Sequence record: AP019559
Direction: 5' to 3' (one strand)
Source: Escherichia phage SP15
DNA length: 64,000 nucleotides
The notes beneath the pieces were generated by a model. That model was not told the DNA's origin. It saw only the letters and a list, made by a program, of their open reading frames with translations, and did no database searches. Positions 5,684 through 59,890 of this stretch are shown here, piece after piece; position 1 is the stretch's first letter, and each line of letters begins with the position of its first letter. The position numbers were made by a program, and so were the translations under genes.

Positions 5684-5712
5684 TTGACATCCGCCCTCGA
5701 ATGAGTTATAAT
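5684..5712 (+). promoter_or_regulatory. Sigma70-type promoter upstream of nrdD (TTGACA, 17-nt spacer, TATAAT)
   Basis: Perfect -35/-10 consensus with 17-nt spacer about 30 nt before the nrdD RBS. Confidence 0.6.
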
Positions 5713-7621: not shown

Positions 7622-7660
7622 TCAGCCGGGTTGCTAGTCGACCTGGCTTTTATTTTATTT
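7622..7660 (+). terminator. Probable rho-independent terminator after nrdD
   Basis: Imperfect hairpin AGCCGG...CTGGCT followed by TTTTATTTTATTT. Confidence 0.4.
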
Positions 7661-7715: not shown

Positions 7716-8096
7716 ATGGAATTAAAGCCCTATATAGTTGAGTCTACGTGTGGTAGTTTCCATCTGGGCGTGGATGATATTGCTGAAGCTGTCTTTGCTG
7801 CCACAGGTGATTACTCGCATATAGAGGGTGTTGCATACCCTACCATTATTGGCGATTGGGTGGGAACAAATCTAGATGTATCGCCTTATAACCCATATTG
7901 CTTGTTTGATGAAGACAGAGATGAAGTAAAATGTAATCTTGAATTTGTGTATAATAGAGTGTTAAAAGTATACCAACGTAGCCCCAATGGATACGAAGAT
8001 ATTACTTGGAGTATTAAACAGTATCTTAAAGATGTATACTCTAGTTTTTCTGACGAAGACCTAGAAACAGTTGCAGTGGAGTTTAATAATGACTAA
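7716..8096 (+). CDS. Hypothetical acidic protein
   Basis: 126-aa ORF with RBS GAGGAG downstream of promoter; no motif recognised. Confidence 0.5.
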   Translation: MELKPYIVESTCGSFHLGVDDIAEAVFAATGDYSHIEGVAYPTIIGDWVGTNLDVSPYNPYCLFDEDRDEVKCNLEFVYNRVLKVYQRSPNGYEDITWSIKQYLKDVYSSFSDEDLETVAVEFNND

Positions 8097-8295
8097 GAAT
8101 GTAAAACATCTTAAATATCGCTTAATTTATAACGGACGTATGGAAACAGAAGATCTGGCCCAGTTAGCTATTAATTCTAATGAGGTTACAGTGCGTGCGC
8201 TGGCAATTGAAAAGTTGCGTGCCTCTTATGAAAATCGTGTTATGGAACTAGAGGAGAAACTTTATGGCATTCTCGAAGCCGATGCTACCAGATAA
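8089..8295 (+). CDS. Hypothetical protein
   Basis: Small ORF whose ATG overlaps the upstream stop; coding-like composition. Confidence 0.4.
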   Translation: MTKNVKHLKYRLIYNGRMETEDLAQLAINSNEVTVRALAIEKLRASYENRVMELEEKLYGILEADATR

Positions 8296-8485
8296 GGGTT
8301 TAAACGCCGCTTTGGAAAACGCATTAATGCAGCACTGGGAAACTGGCTATAAGGATGGTGTTGAATCCTGCGCTACTATGCTAGAAGTTATTGCTAATAC
8401 CTTAATGGAGAAAGGCAATAAAGAATTAGCTGAGCTATTAGACAGTATTGGGCAAAACTTCAGAGAACAGGTGAAAAATGCGTAG
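8264..8485 (+). CDS. Hypothetical protein
   Basis: 73-aa ORF; stop overlaps start of Sir2-like gene (ATGCGTAG). Confidence 0.4.
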   Translation: MAFSKPMLPDKGLNAALENALMQHWETGYKDGVESCATMLEVIANTLMEKGNKELAELLDSIGQNFREQVKNA

Positions 8486-9296
8486 ATTAATTATTATTAG
8501 CGGTGCAGGTTTGAGTGTTGAAAGTGGTGTACGAGCTTTTCGTACTGATACTGCTAGTGGTAAAGCATTGTGGGATGATTATGATCTAGAAGAAGTATGT
8601 AATATTCATGCCTTTCGTGGTAATTTTTATCATAAAACCCATATGTTTTACAACAAGCGTCGTGAAGAGCTAAAAACTGTTGAACCTAATCTTGCTCATT
8701 TGCGTATTGGTGAGTGGTATAAACAATATCCAGGTCAAGTAGTAAACTTGACTACCAACGTTGATGACCTTATTGAGCGTGCTGGCGTTCCACATAGTGA
8801 CATTCTGCACATTCATGGGTACTTAAAAGAGGTTGTTGTGGCTGATAGTCACAATAGTAGTAATAAACGAGTTATTGATGTAGGATACAATTCTATTGAT
8901 CCAGATGACTATAAATGGGTTAAACCTAATGTAATCTTCTTTGGGGAGCATGCTCCAGCATATGCAGAAATGTACAATATTTTTGATGGTATTACCAATC
9001 AAGATATGATCATTGTGGTTGGTTGCTCTAACCAAGTAATTAACTTCTACTGGGAATTATTTCCTATTCTTAACCGTACTGCTGCCAAGCTAATGGTAGT
9101 TAACTACTATGATAGTGCCCTAGCGGCAGAACCAGGCTATCAAGGTATGACTCGTAGTGAGATGTACCAGCTGGAAGAACGCGGTATCCCTTACTGGAGT
9201 AAAGGGGCTGTAGATGCCTTCAGTGATCCTGATTTTATTGCTCGTGTAGAAGCTCATCTAGAGGGTAGACCTTATGTGTCAGGAAGTAAGAAATAA
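8478..9296 (+). CDS. Sir2-family (sirtuin/CobB-like) NAD-dependent enzyme lacking the zinc-ribbon cysteines
   Basis: Sirtuin motifs GAGLSVESGVRAFR, NLAH, TTNVDDLIERAG, ILHIHG; no CxxC...CxxC module between the catalytic His and the C-terminal Rossmann half. Confidence 0.75.
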   Translation: MRRLIIISGAGLSVESGVRAFRTDTASGKALWDDYDLEEVCNIHAFRGNFYHKTHMFYNKRREELKTVEPNLAHLRIGEWYKQYPGQVVNLTTNVDDLIERAGVPHSDILHIHGYLKEVVVADSHNSSNKRVIDVGYNSIDPDDYKWVKPNVIFFGEHAPAYAEMYNIFDGITNQDMIIVVGCSNQVINFYWELFPILNRTAAKLMVVNYYDSALAAEPGYQGMTRSEMYQLEERGIPYWSKGAVDAFSDPDFIARVEAHLEGRPYVSGSKK

Positions 9297-9459
9297 TGAA
9301 TGGGATATTTTCATAACTGAGTCTGGTACTTGGTGCTATAGATTTGCCTATAGGTTTCCTAGTGTAAGAAAACGGCTGGGGTACACATATAAAATTATCT
9401 ACACTACAGATAATATATGGTTGTCCTCTGGAGATGAGGGGAAACAGATATGTCCATAG
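9274..9459 (+). CDS. Hypothetical small protein (WCYR-motif paralog A)
   Basis: 61-aa ORF sharing DIF...G(T/S)WCYR motif with next ORF. Confidence 0.4.
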   Translation: MCQEVRNNEWDIFITESGTWCYRFAYRFPSVRKRLGYTYKIIYTTDNIWLSSGDEGKQICP

Positions 9460-9632
9460 TTAAATCTGTGTATACACATCCCGATGATATATTTGTATGG
9501 GCGGATGGTAGTTGGTGCTATCGATGTGAGCTATGGGAAATGGACTATAAATCTGATGACTATGGTGTCATATATGTTGATACGGTTGAGTATGATACGT
9601 TCTTAGAAAGGGACAAAAATGGAAATAAGTAA
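9450..9632 (+). CDS. Hypothetical small protein (WCYR-motif paralog B)
   Basis: 60-aa ORF, tandem paralog of previous. Confidence 0.4.
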   Translation: MSIVKSVYTHPDDIFVWADGSWCYRCELWEMDYKSDDYGVIYVDTVEYDTFLERDKNGNK

Positions 9633-10125
9633 TACTCCAATTATTTTTCTAGACATTGATGGGGTGCTTAATTCGAGCATCTCCCACCATCATGCACCTG
9701 ATGATGAAAAGATTTTCTTTGGAAGTGACTGGGTTTTTAAGCCACTTCTCAAGGCTTTTCAGGACTTTATTCGTCCTTCTCCAATAATGATTGTTGGGGT
9801 ATCTTCATGGTTCTCTGTCAGGAATGAGATGGAGAACGTTCAGATTATGACCGGATTAGATCTTATCGATCGTTTTCTTGGTACAACGGATTTTACTGGT
9901 GGTGGGCTATCTAGGGGTAATTCTGTTCTTCGCTTCGTTGAAAAGCATAAGCTCAAACATTGGTGTGTGCTGGATGACGCTGGTGCTATGATGTATCAGT
10001 ATCCAACTGTTATAGTCAATGGTAGAATTGGAATAAATCTTCAAGATTTAAGAGCTGTTAGCTATATGTTAGAATTTAGTCCAGATCTTGAAATGTGTAA
10101 AGCCCTACAACAATTTAAGGTGTAA
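9619..10125 (+). CDS. HAD-superfamily hydrolase/phosphatase-like protein
   Basis: Motif I FLDIDGVLN (DxDxV) and downstream VLDDAG. Confidence 0.55.
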   Translation: MEISNTPIIFLDIDGVLNSSISHHHAPDDEKIFFGSDWVFKPLLKAFQDFIRPSPIMIVGVSSWFSVRNEMENVQIMTGLDLIDRFLGTTDFTGGGLSRGNSVLRFVEKHKLKHWCVLDDAGAMMYQYPTVIVNGRIGINLQDLRAVSYMLEFSPDLEMCKALQQFKV

Positions 10126-10127
10126 AT

Positions 10128-10556
10128 ATGTTCAATAATGTGTTCTCTAAAGAAGCTAACCCAATATTAGTTAATTTTTGGCGTACTCTTCCAGCCAACC
10201 TGTACAATGAGGCTATTAATGCTCTGAAAATATGGTGTGAGAATAATGAAATCTCCTTTGCTTTTAAAGGCGAGGTTGAAGAGGCTCCCTGTATTGGTTT
10301 AATTGTGCAGGTGGAGGATGGTCTTGAAGAGATTGTCGGCTGGAAAGAGTTGGATGAAATGGGCTTGGTTTTTGCGTTAAACTATAAGCTGTTTATGCCC
10401 AATAAACACCGTATTGTTGTTAACTATAAAACCAATGAATCTCCTGGTTTTCAAGTTAATGAACGGTATGGTTGGTCTTACTCACCGGAAGAGGTAAATG
10501 ATGGTATCCAGAAACTTCGTCGTTTTGGTTATCAAATTCCGGGTTTAACTGCCTAA
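10128..10556 (+). CDS. Hypothetical protein (tandem paralog 1)
   Basis: 142 aa; shares PCIG, MGL(V/I)xALN, xIPGL with the next ORF. Confidence 0.5.
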   Translation: MFNNVFSKEANPILVNFWRTLPANLYNEAINALKIWCENNEISFAFKGEVEEAPCIGLIVQVEDGLEEIVGWKELDEMGLVFALNYKLFMPNKHRIVVNYKTNESPGFQVNERYGWSYSPEEVNDGIQKLRRFGYQIPGLTA

Positions 10557-10565
10557 GGAGGCACA

Positions 10566-10958
10566 ATGGAACAAGTATATTGGCGTCAGATCGACCCTAG
10601 TTTGGTGAAGCGTGCAGAGAAGCTGCTACAACGTTGGTTGGGGGTAAGACAAGCCTCCTTCACTTTTCCGGAGCAGCAAATAGACGATCCCTGTATTGGT
10701 GTTTTCCTATCAGGCTACGCTAGGGAATGGGAATTGGATTGGAATGAATTGTCTGCTATGGGTTTAATTGTTGCACTAAATTTCTCTTTGTTCCATCCAC
10801 GTGGTTTGGCCATATGTCGTGTGCCTGAGGACGGTTGTTCGCCCCATCTTTTACAGGTGGAAGATGATATTTGGGAGTACACTCCAGATATTCTCAAAGA
10901 AGCCAAAGAACAATTAAACCGTGTTGGAATTTATATTCCAGGCCTGAATGATGAATGA
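10566..10958 (+). CDS. Hypothetical protein (tandem paralog 2)
   Basis: 130 aa; paralog of 10128-10556; strong RBS TAAGGAGG. Confidence 0.5.
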   Translation: MEQVYWRQIDPSLVKRAEKLLQRWLGVRQASFTFPEQQIDDPCIGVFLSGYAREWELDWNELSAMGLIVALNFSLFHPRGLAICRVPEDGCSPHLLQVEDDIWEYTPDILKEAKEQLNRVGIYIPGLNDE

Positions 10959-11097
10959 TTTTTATTGGTTGACCTCTATAATCCGGGCTATTAGTGCTCG
11001 GATTATTGCCTAATCTTTCCAGCTAATTGACAGCATGAATAAATTGTCATTGACAAATTGAATAGATTATGTAATAATATGTGTATTGGAGGTAAAG

Positions 11098-11550
11098 ATG
11101 TCGCTCACACAACAAGAACTTTTAGATAATTTCCGATATGAAGATGGAAAATTATTTAGAACCACAGGAAGAAATGCAGGCAAGGAATGTTGTGTTTCAA
11201 CGGGAAATGGGTATTATCGTATTTCTCTAGGTAGTAAAACTATGCTCCGACACAGAGCCATCTTCTTAATGCATCATGGTTATCTCCCTGATTTAGTAGA
11301 TCATGAGAATACTATAAAAGGTGATGATCGTATTGAAAATCTTAGAGAGCAGACAGTATCCGGTAATCTAAGAAATATCAAATATAAGAAAGGAATGCAT
11401 GTTTACCCTTCTGGTAGTAAGAACTGGCAAGTAGTATTTACTATTAACCGTAAACGTATAGTTAAAGGAACATATGACAACTATGAGGTTGCATGTTCTA
11501 TGGCCAAGATGTTTAGAGGTCAATTATACGGTAGGGAATCAATCCAGTAA
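11098..11550 (+). CDS. HNH homing endonuclease (HNH_3 type)
   Basis: Motif LVDHENTIKGDDRIENLRE; start at ATG preceded by GGAGG; free-standing in an intergenic position. Confidence 0.7.
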   Translation: MSLTQQELLDNFRYEDGKLFRTTGRNAGKECCVSTGNGYYRISLGSKTMLRHRAIFLMHHGYLPDLVDHENTIKGDDRIENLREQTVSGNLRNIKYKKGMHVYPSGSKNWQVVFTINRKRIVKGTYDNYEVACSMAKMFRGQLYGRESIQ

Positions 11551-11618
11551 AATTTCATTTGCAAGGGAGTATTATTTTATAGTATAATATTCCCATAAAT
11601 GAGAGATATTAGTAAAAA

Positions 11619-56088: not shown

Positions 56089-57302
56089 TCTTTATCTCCC
56101 TCGGTGGAACCTTGAGGTCTACCACCTTCTTGACCAGATACACCTGTTGCAGAACCAGCAACGTTAGCAGGAATACGAATCCTATCCATCTGCTCATCAT
56201 CTAAAGGTTCAAGGTTCAGCTCTAAACGAGCTTCGTTACCAGTCATAATACCATTATTAACCAATGAGGTTAAATGTTTAGCCTCAGCTTCTTTATCTGG
56301 TGTTAATGCAGCTACCTCCTTAGTATTAGGGGTAATCTTATAACCAAAAAAGAAAGTAAGAGAACTAGTCAGTTTGTTCAGCATAGGAATGATAGTCATA
56401 TAATAGAACAATTCGATGTTTGGTCGAATATTCGCATTATTACCACCATCAAGTAGTACTTGCGGAACTCCAAAGGCTAGACAAATAGATTTATTAAATC
56501 CTTCGATGTCTTCCTTAAAGTCTAGATCTTTAAAAGAGGATATTTGGGAGTACGGTTTAGCTTTCATACCACCATCTAGAATCAGGACAGAAGACTGACC
56601 CGTACTAGGATTATAATCGAGTTGTAATTCTTCTTGTTTACGCTCACGCAATTTCTTGTTCAGGATTTCATCCGTTTCAAGAATAAGACCAATCACGGTT
56701 CCGTTATCGAGGAATTTCTCTTTAAAATTAAGCATCTTGGAACGCTTCTCAAGAGAATCAATAACAGTAGCAACACGAGATTGTCCAGAAATTTGAGAAT
56801 TTGTGCCACACACGTAACTGTTATCCTTTATAAAGATAATCTCATCTACGCGATAGTCTATCTGATTATTAAATATAAATTTTTTGATAAACTTATTGGC
56901 ATCTGCCTCGACCTGCATAAGAGCAGCCGGGACATGGTAAAGCGATGTGCCATCCCAATAGATGTACGCACAACCTTCAAAAAGTAGGTCAGTGACTACA
57001 AGTCTACGGAATGTGCTTATATCCATGAATGGATTAGGTCGTACATTTAAGAGAGTGTCTAGAGTCTTTGTCTTAACGCCATTAGCGTACGTAACAATAT
57101 TATATTTATCTCCGACAGTATAAGAACACTCCGCCGCACTATCTATAACCATATTGGCAGTTCGATTGAGAATCTCAATCTTGCTATAGGCTTGTCCAGT
57201 GGTAAAAGGCTTACGGTTAGTGCGATGACTAACTGGTTCCATGTCTCTTATAATACGTTGACCCGGATTTAACTTTTCAGTAATCCAGCTTTTTAAACCC
57301 AT
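56085..57302 (-). CDS. Portal protein (pb7-like)
   Basis: 405 aa, position between terminase and head genes. Confidence 0.75.
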   Translation of the reverse strand: MGLKSWITEKLNPGQRIIRDMEPVSHRTNRKPFTTGQAYSKIEILNRTANMVIDSAAECSYTVGDKYNIVTYANGVKTKTLDTLLNVRPNPFMDISTFRRLVVTDLLFEGCAYIYWDGTSLYHVPAALMQVEADANKFIKKFIFNNQIDYRVDEIIFIKDNSYVCGTNSQISGQSRVATVIDSLEKRSKMLNFKEKFLDNGTVIGLILETDEILNKKLRERKQEELQLDYNPSTGQSSVLILDGGMKAKPYSQISSFKDLDFKEDIEGFNKSICLAFGVPQVLLDGGNNANIRPNIELFYYMTIIPMLNKLTSSLTFFFGYKITPNTKEVAALTPDKEAEAKHLTSLVNNGIMTGNEARLELNLEPLDDEQMDRIRIPANVAGSATGVSGQEGGRPQGSTEGDKE

Positions 57303-57739
57303 TATAAGAACCTTGCGAATCCTGATTTTGTTTCAGTCTTGACTTGTGTCTTTTCTTGAGGATTCTGTAATTTGTCTTTCTGCTTTTGAACCCATGCTTT
57401 CTGTTTATTAGCAGAAAATAATGGAGGTTCTTTCGTGTAAACCTTATGTAATAGTTGGTGATGGTGCTGGCACAATGTTACCACGTCCCTAACTAACTCA
57501 TGCTCATATTTCTTGTAGAATGCTTCCCTATTTGAAAGGACGATATTCTCATCAGTGAAATCCAGCTGGAGTTCTTTAGCAAATTTTTTTATTAGCTGAG
57601 ATATAGTATGATAATGGTGAAGTTCTAGGTCTTCACTACTACCACATATAGCACAGCAACCATCCTTACTATACCTAGATTTTATGCCATCCCTCATTAT
57701 GGAAATGGCATCACGTTTGTACTTAGTATTAGTGGCCAT
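57302..57739 (-). CDS. Small HNH endonuclease
   Basis: CAICGSSEDLELHHYH...CQHHHQLLH HNH/zinc motif; start uncertain. Confidence 0.6.
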   Translation of the reverse strand: MATNTKYKRDAISIMRDGIKSRYSKDGCCAICGSSEDLELHHYHTISQLIKKFAKELQLDFTDENIVLSNREAFYKKYEHELVRDVVTLCQHHHQLLHKVYTKEPPLFSANKQKAWVQKQKDKLQNPQEKTQVKTETKSGFARFL

Positions 57740-58403
57740 AATCCTCCAATCCAAAGCTACTTAGAAAGATTACTATATTCTCGGGAGCAACATTAAAAAA
57801 TTCCGTGCTTCCTGTAAAATTAGAAAACCCACAGTTTTTATTATAATATTCTCTGTGAACTTCCTTTTCTAAATCTAAAGCAGTCTCTCTATCTGGCAGA
57901 TGATACATGGTGAACAAGTATAGATCAGAAAATCCAGATTCTCTTTTAACTTCATTCAGCCGTTTCTCAGGGTATAAGCTTATGCCTACTTTAGTACCCC
58001 TAGAGGAGGACATGATATAGAGGAACCCGCCATTCTCCCATTTAAGAGAACAATAAGGGCATCTCTTACCTTGAGTCAATCCATCTAAGGTAATGAAACA
58101 GTCATGCCCATTATTGCAGCGTAGATGTAGTTTTGTTTTAGCATTAGTATAGCTGCTTAACAGAGTATACCCTATATTAGATATTCTGTTACTAACTTCA
58201 TCTAACGATATTGTATTATTGGAGCAGTGTGGACAACCTCTCCTCATATGGAGTATAGAATGTGGTGTTGCTTCCCAAACGTGTGCTCTCTGGCATTTAA
58301 ATACTGTTTTTGTACGTTGGTTTACATATTCACCGATAATTTGGATTCCACGATCAGCTAATCTAATATTTATATCTTTTATTGTTAGCTTTTGTCGACC
58401 CAT
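57729..58403 (-). CDS. T5orf172/GIY-YIG-like nuclease domain protein with two N-terminal zinc-ribbon modules
   Basis: Paired CxxxH...CPHC and C...CPYC modules then GFLYIM...KVGIS...R...E segment; start at ATG after GGAG. Confidence 0.5.
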   Translation of the reverse strand: MGRQKLTIKDINIRLADRGIQIIGEYVNQRTKTVFKCQRAHVWEATPHSILHMRRGCPHCSNNTISLDEVSNRISNIGYTLLSSYTNAKTKLHLRCNNGHDCFITLDGLTQGKRCPYCSLKWENGGFLYIMSSSRGTKVGISLYPEKRLNEVKRESGFSDLYLFTMYHLPDRETALDLEKEVHREYYNKNCGFSNFTGSTEFFNVAPENIVIFLSSFGLEDYGH

Positions 58404-58573
58404 AGAATCTCCTACACCCATGTAGAGCATTAATTTTTCTTGTTTACGTTCTATTATGGGAGAAGTTCTCCCGATCAATGAATATAGTATACATAATCGT
58501 ATCGAATTTGTAAAGGGGATTTTAAAATACAGGAATGGGATACCAACTGAGTAGTATCCCATCCTATACTTAT

Positions 58574-59890
58574 TTATTTACCACGGGAAATAGAGTAAAT
58601 TCCATAGCGGAGCGCATCACAAAGGTGAGAGTTAGCATCATGACGTGGTTTTTCACGCGATAATTTCTCTTCGCCTTCTTGGAAGTCCCACTTATAGTTC
58701 TGCAATGCATGAATTAAGGAGGAACATGAGGCATCTACAATAATCTTGCCCTGCTGGAATAGCGCTTGCAAGCATGCTAGACCATCTAGGACAGATTTTT
58801 TAGCTGGAGCCGATGCAATTTCATGCTCATAAGCTAAGTCTTGACGGAACTGAGCTGCCGCGGAGTCAACAAAAATACGATCAACTTTATAACGATCTAT
58901 ACAGTGCTGAATATAAGCAGCATGCTGAGCTGTAGTTTTCTCCGCCTGCTGGTACTCTTCTAACACATAGTAAGTATCCGTATCGTAATGATATTTAATA
59001 GTAAGAACTGCTGTAGGATCACGATAACCAACGTCAATACCAAGCAACGTTTCGAATGCTTCATCATCTTTAAAGAAGTGACGCATACCTTTGAGATCTT
59101 TAACATGATCTATAGCATTGAAAGTATCAAATATCTGCCCTTCGAATACAGAGAAGTCAGCCTCGTATTCTTGGCGGAAATAGTTTTTACTAACTGTACG
59201 ACGTGCTTCCTCAATATCATTCAAATCAGCACGTGGGTTATCACGATATGTACCATGAATAGACACCCAGTTAGGTAATGTATCATCAAATCCATAGGCG
59301 TAAAACTCTTTAAACCAGTTACCCCCACGAGGGGTGGAAATAAATAGAGCCTTAGAATTAGGTTTATCTAGAGTAGGACGCAGCTGAACCCTGAAGGCAT
59401 CACCACCCACATCGGAAATTGCCGCCTCGTCAAAGATGATAAAATCATATGAACGTCCAACTGCGGAGTCAGCCTGAGCCGCGGAAGCTAGTTTAAATAG
59501 GGAACCGTTTGCCAGCTCAATCTCTTTATCTTTAGCATTCTCACGTTCTGTTTGCAACCCATACTTCTTAATAAGACCACGAATCTGAGACCATCCGATA
59601 TTAGCCAGTGAGTAGTTAGGGGCGACTACTAGTACCTTCACATTGGGTTCCAGCAATTTTAGGAACCCAAGTGTATACGCTATAAAAGATTTACCTACAC
59701 GGCGTGATACACACGCCGTTACAAAACGATGTCTAGGGTCTTCTAGGGCATTGATAATTGCTATTTGAGGGCCATTAGGTGTAATACCCTCTTGTGCTAG
59801 TATTCCGGAAACAGGTAAACGAAAGAAACGCTTATCTATTCCGAAATCAATAACATCTACTGTATTAACGTAGGGTCTTGATACTTCCAT
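58574..59890 (-). CDS. Terminase large subunit
   Basis: 438 aa; ATPase Walker A-like RVGKSF, Walker B IIFDEAA, C-terminal nuclease domain. Confidence 0.85.
   Translation of the reverse strand: MEVSRPYVNTVDVIDFGIDKRFFRLPVSGILAQEGITPNGPQIAIINALEDPRHRFVTACVSRRVGKSFIAYTLGFLKLLEPNVKVLVVAPNYSLANIGWSQIRGLIKKYGLQTERENAKDKEIELANGSLFKLASAAQADSAVGRSYDFIIFDEAAISDVGGDAFRVQLRPTLDKPNSKALFISTPRGGNWFKEFYAYGFDDTLPNWVSIHGTYRDNPRADLNDIEEARRTVSKNYFRQEYEADFSVFEGQIFDTFNAIDHVKDLKGMRHFFKDDEAFETLLGIDVGYRDPTAVLTIKYHYDTDTYYVLEEYQQAEKTTAQHAAYIQHCIDRYKVDRIFVDSAAAQFRQDLAYEHEIASAPAKKSVLDGLACLQALFQQGKIIVDASCSSLIHALQNYKWDFQEGEEKLSREKPRHDANSHLCDALRYGIYSISRGK

Follow-up and report, generated by a model that had tools for sequence, protein, structure and literature searches.

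The window analyzed here, a stretch of 64,000 nucleotides from Escherichia phage SP15 (sequence record AP019559), belongs to a T5-like phage (Tequintavirus) and harbors, in its early nucleotide-metabolism and replication region, a gene for a protein of the Sir2 (sirtuin) family. The gene occupies 8478..9296 on the + strand and encodes 272 amino acids. Its ATG start codon overlaps the 3′ end of a preceding open reading frame (ORF; 8264..8485), and a Shine-Dalgarno sequence, AGGTGA (8469-8474, + strand), ends 3 nt 5′ of this ATG. Two small genes further downstream on the same strand lies a gene for a phosphatase of the HAD_SAK_2 family (9619..10125; 168 amino acids, the ortholog of T5.105), which is the proposed partner of the sirtuin. 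The sirtuin itself is the ortholog of T5.102, with approximately 96% protein identity, and a member of phrog_2162; there is no difference of substance between these proteins and that of SP15. In T5, the gene is annotated as 'Sir2 (NAD-dependent deacetylase)' (NAD, nicotinamide adenine dinucleotide). The feature itself was known before, both through annotation and from an in silico hypothesis, and the window adds no new gene.

The assignment to the SIR2 family is based on matches far above chance. The Pfam profile SIR2 (PF02146), which has 180 positions, matched residues 9-187 with its positions 1-178 (E=1.1e-25), and the score of 91.1 bits was well above the cut-off of 24. The phrog_2162 'Sir2' profile, with 277 positions, was matched essentially from end to end, with its positions 10-276 aligned to residues 1-268 of the protein (E=2.1e-121). 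A sequence search of the PDB returned E. coli CobB (E=1.6e-17), Sir2Af1/Af2 and SIRT5 as the best matches. The best NCBIfam matches were deacylase models (NF001753, NF040867 and related ones), yet all seven remained below their thresholds, with the top match reaching 103 bits against a cut-off of 243. The structure predicted by AlphaFold2 (AF2) comprises a Rossmann domain and a small domain, with a predicted local distance difference test score (pLDDT) of 94 and a predicted template modeling (TM) score, pTM, of 0.91. In a Foldseek search, this model retrieved CobB, Sir2Af1, SIRT5 and Sir2Tm with probability 1.00 and E values between 1e-13 and 1e-17; its nearest solved folds are those of the class III lysine deacylases E. 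coli CobB (TM 0.72/0.85), Sir2Af1 and SIRT5. The protein consists of a single domain, and its gene has no HerA, SLOG, pAgo or TIR neighbor. When the sirtuin, the HAD protein and one of the DUF7415 proteins encoded downstream were compared with the PADLOC models, those for defense SIR2 NADases included, there was no match at E<=0.01. An identity as a defense-type SIR2 protein was considered and rejected, since there was no PADLOC match.

Much of the catalytic core is that of a conventional sirtuin. The NAD-binding segment GAGLSVESGVRAFR (residues 9-22; 8502..8543, + strand, as for all segments below) contains the GAGxS motif and the cofactor loop with Phe21-Arg22, and G9, A10, G11, S13, S16, G17, F21 and R22 are each conserved to at least 90%. 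Compared with CobB/SIRT5-type sirtuins, this loop has about four additional residues. It is followed by the class III sirtuin signature Y58-x-x-R61 (8649..8660), which aligns with Y92 and R95 of CobB, and by an NLAH motif at residues 71-74. NVDDLIERAG lies at residues 94-103, and the catalytic His113 is part of HIHG (residues 111-114; 8808..8819). The FFGE loop (residues 154-157; 8937..8948) has its Phe at position 155 conserved to 99-100% and its Glu at position 157 to 99%. Across an alignment of 127 sequences, reaching down to approximately 30% identity, G9, N94, H113, G114, Y162 and G182 are invariant. In addition to the residues of the NAD-binding segment already named, W32, C41, F57, Y58, R62, P70, N71, H74, T92, D96, L98, E100, G103, K149, P150, F155, E157, P160, D176, V187 and N209 are at least 90% conserved in these sequences, D96 even to at least 98%. 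As far as can be read from the alignment, this pattern of conservation is that of an active enzyme and not of a decayed one.

The NAD pocket, however, departs from the canonical one at two places. In canonical sirtuins, the Gln of the TQN motif and the Thr of the GTS motif contact NAD. In the SP15 protein, TTNVDD (residues 92-97; 8751..8768) stands in place of the canonical TQNID, such that Thr93 takes the place of the Gln, with Asn94 and Asp96 unchanged. Likewise, GCSN (residues 182-185; 9021..9032) is a variant of the canonical GTSG, with Cys183 instead of Thr and Asn185 instead of Gly. Both deviations follow the presence or absence of zinc ligands among the relatives. Thr is found at position 93 in all 152 members of the zinc-free clade, whereas all 75 zinc-type relatives have Gln; a few relatives are intermediate and carry Thr together with zinc ligands. 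At the GCSN positions, the zinc-free clade has mostly Cys (71%; Ala 12%, Ser 11%) and Asn (78%), whereas the zinc-type relatives have Thr in 100% of cases and never Asn. Besides T93, C183 and N185, residues F46, Y51, F190 and F248 are specific to the clade. The Y-x-x-R signature is retained in the zinc-free clade, with the Tyr conserved to 99% and the Arg to 94-96%.

A further deviation concerns the zinc ribbon, which in sirtuins is located between the HG of the catalytic motif (114) and FFGE (154). The only two cysteines of the SP15 sirtuin, C41 and C183, both lie outside of this region. When the protein was aligned with 269 relatives, the columns of the four cysteines, which are 97-100% conserved in the 73 zinc-type relatives, fell into gaps of its sequence after residues 121 and 147, so that both CxxC knuckles are deleted and not merely mutated. 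In their place, a small beta module without Cys or CxxC is predicted (residues 115-153; 8820..8936), for which the AF2 model has strands at 114-122, 131-134 and 147-152 with a pLDDT of 94-98. This module still carries the [DN][IV]GY and KPNV motifs that it shares with the zinc-type relatives. What is new in the present analysis is that, across these sequences, the loss of zinc is accompanied by clade-wide changes of the NAD pocket, from TQN to TTN and from GTS to GCS-N.

By tblastn, relatives of the sirtuin were found in 999 phage records, among them T5-like, rV5-like, phAPEC8-like, Klebsiella, Vibrio KVP40-like and jumbo phages. In a neighbor-joining tree, from which the zinc region and positions 93 and 185 were left out, the clade that contains the query has 30 members, and neither the Gln nor zinc ligands occur in any of them (0/30); the tree is a rough one, without bootstrap support. 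This would argue that zinc loss and pocket remodeling mark one lineage, and by sequence the SP15 sirtuin is placed in a zinc-free clade that is restricted to phages. All members of the clade are acidic, with isoelectric points (pI) of 4.7-5.8. Domain fusions were also inspected in longer relatives (311-528 amino acids), some of which contain a further SIR2 stretch and others WG or RHS repeats, while the rest have nothing recognizable. With the exception of P0175, these are all of the Gln type, and the fusions thus have little bearing on the zinc-free clade.

These results can be set against the original prediction, which was made from the letters of the window and had described a Sir2/CobB-like protein without a zinc ribbon in the early region of a phage, surrounded by small genes of unassigned function and a HAD hydrolase. 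This description holds for the family, for the missing cysteines, for the four motifs that it quoted and for the genomic setting, in which the HAD hydrolase is the HAD_SAK_2 protein. The profile search and the structure prediction that it proposed returned a SIR2 match above threshold and a sirtuin fold, and the loss of the catalytic His on alignment, which it had named as a finding that would speak against it, is not seen. Its statement that all core motifs are present was too broad: the protein retains the catalytic His and the greater part of the NAD pocket, both strongly conserved, but neither the canonical Gln nor the GTS-G sequence.

With respect to the function of the zinc-free sirtuins, an indication comes from the genes that surround them. 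We called ORFs on 80 viral contigs with relatives of the sirtuin, clustered the neighboring genes and extended the clusters with local hidden Markov models (HMMs); iteration of the local HMMs was required, because clustering of the neighbors by BLAST alone missed remote relationships. Single linkage at 70% identity yielded 28 sirtuin lineages, 21 of them zinc-free and 7 zinc-type, and genes up to six positions away were counted as neighbors. Genes for the processing of RNA ends or cyclic phosphates occur within this distance in 10 of the 21 zinc-free lineages, but in none of the 7 zinc-type lineages (Fisher one-sided p=0.027). At the level of individual loci, such partners are found in 54/76 zinc-free as opposed to 0/8 zinc-type cases. 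All 10 partner-bearing lineages are both zinc-free and Gln-less.

The partners in these ten lineages come in three unrelated architectures. In the T5-like architecture, to which the SP15 locus belongs, the sirtuin is accompanied by HAD_SAK_2. In the rV5-like architecture, a gene for an RNA ligase (RNA_lig_T4_1) is followed by cREC_REC, a family of cyclic-phosphate processing, and then by the sirtuin; an AAA_33 kinase and a calcineurin-like phosphoesterase are encoded close by. In the jumbo-phage architecture, a 2H/Acb1-like phosphoesterase precedes the sirtuin, which is followed by a Nudt16-like Nudix domain fused to cREC. The neighbors of the zinc-type viral lineages, in contrast, include glycosyl-, sulfo- and PP-loop transferases.

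The comparison of neighborhoods also brought up two further associations. In five lineages, a gene for a NAMPT-type nicotinamide phosphoribosyltransferase is located a few genes upstream of the sirtuin, as on a jumbo phage contig (L075:2336-3847) and in lineages 15, 16, 19 and 25. NAMPT recycles nicotinamide, the by-product of sirtuins, and this pairing suggests a substantial turnover of NAD, or else a link to the NAD-salvage counter-defense of phages. In Justusliebigvirus and phAPEC8-like phages, the gene directly upstream of the sirtuin is annotated as a 'putative aminoacyl-tRNA synthetase' (L004:4459-4986 in Escherichia phage EmilieFrey, bas61_0187). This gene has no Pfam match and adjoins the sirtuin in two lineages (3 and 23).

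In SP15, the HAD_SAK_2 protein is recognized by Pfam (PF18143) with E=5e-20, and this family is described in Pfam as 'HAD domain in Swiss Army Knife RNA repair proteins'. Its catalytic motifs, DxDGV, SSW, GGxxRG and DD, are invariant in an alignment. The AF2 model of the HAD protein has a pLDDT of 94.4, and Foldseek with this model gave weak matches to the cap-less HAD phosphatases KdsC, MDP-1 and AQ2171; a PDB sequence search with the protein gave no match even at E<=10. The likeness of the fold is compatible with a macromolecular substrate, but is no proof of one. In RefSeq, it is the HAD_SAK_2 gene that carries the name 'Sir2 (NAD-dependent deacetylase)', both in T5 (T5.105, NC_005859) and in slur09 (SLUR09_00097, NC_028840). 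The source of this mislabel is phrog_18062, a 92-amino-acid profile of the C-terminal half of the HAD protein that bears a Sir2 label, and since the mis-annotation has been propagated, many T5-like genomes appear to have two sirtuins.

The two genes are part of a close-packed, co-directional string that extends from 7716 to 10958 on the + strand and comprises three small genes of unassigned function (7716..8096, 8071..8295 and 8264..8485), the sirtuin, two overlapping small paralogs of phrog_5116 (9274..9459 and 9450..9632; 60-61 amino acids), the HAD gene and, at its end, two tandem DUF7415 paralogs (10128..10556 and 10566..10958; 130-142 amino acids). In both of these proteins, DUF7415 is matched twice. 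Genes of this family occur alongside the sirtuin in five of five T5-like lineages, also in the two that have no HAD gene. Upstream of the string, a perfect sigma-70 consensus promoter (TTGACA-17-TATAAT; 5684..5712, + strand) precedes nrdD, and a terminator-like hairpin with a 10-bp stem (7624-7648), just after nrdD, separates this gene from the sirtuin string. Both elements agree with the promoter and terminator that are annotated in T5. There, T5.100-T5.107 are annotated as one promoter-to-terminator unit, which holds both the sirtuin and the HAD gene.

Over 2.6 kb around the sirtuin, the identity to many phages of Salmonella and Escherichia is 93-96%. The segment 8477-10977, from the sirtuin through the second DUF7415 gene, corresponds to T5 56446-58946 at 95.8% DNA identity and with the same gene order. 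Directly upstream, most of the 73-amino-acid ORF that overlaps the sirtuin start (phrog_5827; positions 8288-8476) has no counterpart in T5 by blastn, while its flanks are 91-96% identical. Downstream, 10978-11582 is inserted relative to T5, which has 95 bp at this place. The insertion contains an ORF with a Pfam HNH_3 match (11086..11550, phrog_99), which is probably a homing endonuclease and has its own near-consensus promoter (11050-11078). The window contains no tRNA genes; the tRNA cluster of the phage lies outside of it, and in T5, 25 tRNA features are annotated. Furthermore, T5-like phages carry a gene of the YbiA/NADAR family approximately 10 kb beyond nrdA (in slur09, NC_028840.1 87141-87590), and this gene as well as the tRNA cluster bear on conflicts over ADP-ribose and tRNA. 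Of the genes of the NARP3 type, by which NAD is rebuilt, neither NadR nor PnuC is annotated within approximately 40 kb of the sirtuin in T5 and slur09, such that no link to this pathway emerged.

Several aspects of this family have been described before. In 2016, the Sir2/CobB proteins of the Vibrio phages phiSt2 and phiGrn1 were modeled, the absence of zinc ligands was reported, and it was proposed that they activate Acs by deacetylation (PMC5107563). These proteins and that of KVP40 belong to the same zinc-free phage clade and have approximately 36% identity to the SP15 sirtuin. The KVP40 protein is also Gln-less, with TANVSD, but it has GSTL where SP15 has GCSN, and its gene has no HAD_SAK_2 nearby; its neighbors are MazG, DUF7275 and a metallophosphoesterase. 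A survey by Iyer et al. from 2022 found that most viral sirtuins form a distinct clade, for which a role in RNA repair was predicted, and distinguished three types of neighborhood, the third of which is typified by Escherichia phage SP15 and shows the T5-type pairing with a "Swiss-army-knife" HAD phosphatase (PMC9503650). In the same work, a KptA-like removal of the 2′-phosphate from RNA was proposed for the phage sirtuins (PMC9503650). Sir2La was considered as a possible characterized sirtuin without zinc, but the preprint on it makes no mention of zinc ligands. In the literature that we searched, no experimental study of any phage sirtuin was found.

What, then, does the SP15 sirtuin do? With a sirtuin fold and an intact His/Asn/Asp center, it very likely performs the canonical NAD+ chemistry, in which NAD+ is cleaved, ADP-ribose is passed to an oxygen nucleophile, and the 2″-OH, activated by the His, then attacks. 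The enzyme would bind NAD+, expel nicotinamide and move the ADP-ribose onto the nucleophile, and His113 would then activate the 2″-OH of the ribose to attack the adduct, as in the two steps of canonical sirtuins. According to PMC11417386, Tpt1 similarly uses NAD+ as donor of ADP-ribose to an oxygen nucleophile with release of nicotinamide, after which the 2″-OH attacks the adduct to give a cyclic product. By analogy, the two steps of Tpt1 can be regarded as chemically parallel to those of a sirtuin. The likeness is one of proposed function only, since Tpt1/KptA has an unrelated fold and no sequence similarity to sirtuins. In cells, the healing enzymes that accompany Tpt1/KptA are RNA ligase, kinase and cyclic phosphodiesterase, and the fungal and plant pathway requires a 2′-phosphotransferase after ligase, kinase and cyclic phosphodiesterase have acted. 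In rV5-type phages, the ligase, the kinase, a putative cyclic phosphodiesterase and the sirtuin together mirror this pathway, with the sirtuin in the place of the phosphotransferase. For these two reasons, the parallel chemistry and the mirrored gene set, we favor the notion that the SP15 sirtuin is an active, zinc-independent and NAD-dependent enzyme that performs a Tpt1-like step on damaged RNA together with the HAD phosphatase. This notion was first put forward in PMC9503650 and is a prediction from context, and we regard it as a tentative working model that has somewhat less than an even chance of being correct. In such a module, the HAD phosphatase would heal the terminal phosphate that remains, and the two enzymes together may repair, early in infection, tRNA or other RNA that has been cut by anticodon nucleases or toxins of the host. 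With approximately 25 tRNA genes in T5, it is plausible that the integrity of tRNA matters to the phage.

A broader form of this proposal is that the zinc-free, Gln-less phage sirtuins as a group are directed at RNA, either as 2′-phosphotransferases that complete RNA repair or by acting on NAD-capped RNA, and would be the first sirtuins with a nucleic-acid substrate. We consider this possible, though doubtful. The 2′-phosphotransferase version stems from PMC9503650; the version with NAD-capped RNA is our own and is more speculative, and was considered because of the remodeled NAD pocket and the Nudt16-like Nudix neighbor in jumbo phages. Several observations do not sit easily with an RNA substrate. 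About half of the zinc-free lineages have no recognizable RNA partner, and in two T5-like lineages, there is no HAD gene close to the sirtuin. No RNA ligase is found near the T5-type module. The nearest characterized relatives, by sequence as well as by fold, are protein lysine deacylases, and not only Y-x-x-R but also the residues that form the acyl-lysine tunnel in CobB (F155, V187 and V152) are kept, where some drift might be expected if RNA were the substrate. The likeness of the HAD model to the phosphatase domains of T4 and mammalian PNKP is weak (Foldseek E about 0.2, TM 0.37-0.42). Finally, the acidic nature of the clade is unlike typical RNA-binding enzymes; Tpt1/KptA is basic.

The main alternative is a protein lysine deacylase of the CobB/SIRT5 type, NAD-dependent and acting as a deacetylase or desuccinylase. 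It would be made early and strip acyl groups off host or phage proteins, for instance to reactivate acetyl-CoA synthetase or further enzymes of metabolism. This corresponds to the standard database annotation and to the model offered for the Vibrio phages (PMC5107563). The SP15 sirtuin shares with CobB and SIRT5 the Rossmann fold and small domain, the catalytic His/Asn/Asp, GAGxS, FGE and Y-x-x-R, and CobB, Sir2Af1 and SIRT5 are its best PDB matches by sequence and fold, just as the best NCBIfam matches are deacylase models. Y58 and R61 correspond to the acyl-carboxylate pair Y92/R95 of CobB and are at least 94% conserved, and His113, the FGE loop and V187 are conserved as well. The acidic pI and the lack of an RNA ligase near the T5 sirtuin keep this explanation close. 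However, the SP15 protein differs from CobB and SIRT5 by the missing zinc cysteines, the changes from TQN to TTN and from GTS-G to GCS-N, the longer loop, and its presence in a phage with neighbors of the RNA-repair type. All NCBIfam deacylase models are far below their cut-offs, and the Gln and Thr that are invariant in the zinc-type relatives are replaced throughout the clade. Furthermore, a deacylase offers no obvious explanation for the recurrent linkage to genes of RNA-end and cyclic-phosphate processing in three architectures, and the host already has CobB. On balance, we judge a plain deacylase to be less likely than not, though close behind the RNA-repair model.

Two other possibilities were considered. 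ThsA, DSR1/2, SIR2-HerA, SIR2-pAgo and SirTM all belong to the Sir2 superfamily and consume NAD, as is predicted for the SP15 sirtuin, and many defense-associated SIR2 proteins likewise lack a zinc ribbon. Some sirtuins, such as SirTM, are mono-ADP-ribosyltransferases (PMC8120803), and the SP15 protein might modify a host or phage protein or a nucleic acid in this way, without subsequent removal of an acyl or phosphate group. The remodeled NAD pocket could favor transfer over deacylation, and the Nudt16-like Nudix neighbor in jumbo phages would fit, because enzymes of the Nudt16-like family can process ADP-ribose conjugates. SirTM, however, is paired with a macrodomain and has Gln in place of the catalytic His (PMC8120803), whereas His113 is invariant here, no macrodomain gene was found in the neighborhood, and there is no arrangement like that of an ADP-ribosyltransferase-type toxin-antitoxin pair. 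This makes such a transferase improbable.

Even less probable, in our estimation, is that the protein is an NAD+ glycohydrolase, or otherwise modulates NAD pools or an NAD-related signal, so as to counter NAD-dependent defense or to shut down host metabolism. Phages and their hosts are known to contend over NAD, and pathways by which it is restored are encoded in phages (PMC13464706); the NAMPT gene 3-4 genes from the sirtuin in jumbo relatives and the YbiA/NADAR gene in T5-like phages would be in line with such a role. Against it stand the PADLOC scan, which gave no match to the SIR2 NADase models either, and the deacylase-type architecture with the catalytic His and the substrate tunnel retained. 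Unlike the defense SIR2 NADases, the SP15 sirtuin is a stand-alone protein of the canonical type that lacks the sensor or partner typical of NADase effectors, and NAD depletion would presumably harm a phage that itself needs NAD. Thus, the retained His, the lack of a macrodomain partner and the lack of a match to defense profiles make both the transferase and the glycohydrolase less likely. The original prediction had suggested a modification of host proteins, or an effect on NAD pools that are relevant to NAD-depleting defense systems; neither received specific support, and the neighboring genes favor RNA repair instead.

Approximately 1000 sequenced phages, including the model phage T5, carry this predicted NAD-consuming enzyme, and the window from SP15 provides a clean and typical representative of the family with which to address the question of its substrate. 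Should the enzyme turn out to be a plain deacylase, it would be one more auxiliary metabolic gene. If, on the other hand, it does act on RNA, the chemistry of sirtuins would be extended to nucleic acids, and phages would possess a compact RNA-repair module that could counter the tRNA-cleaving defenses of their hosts. This would bear on how phages escape from anticodon nucleases, and also on the choice of phages for therapy.

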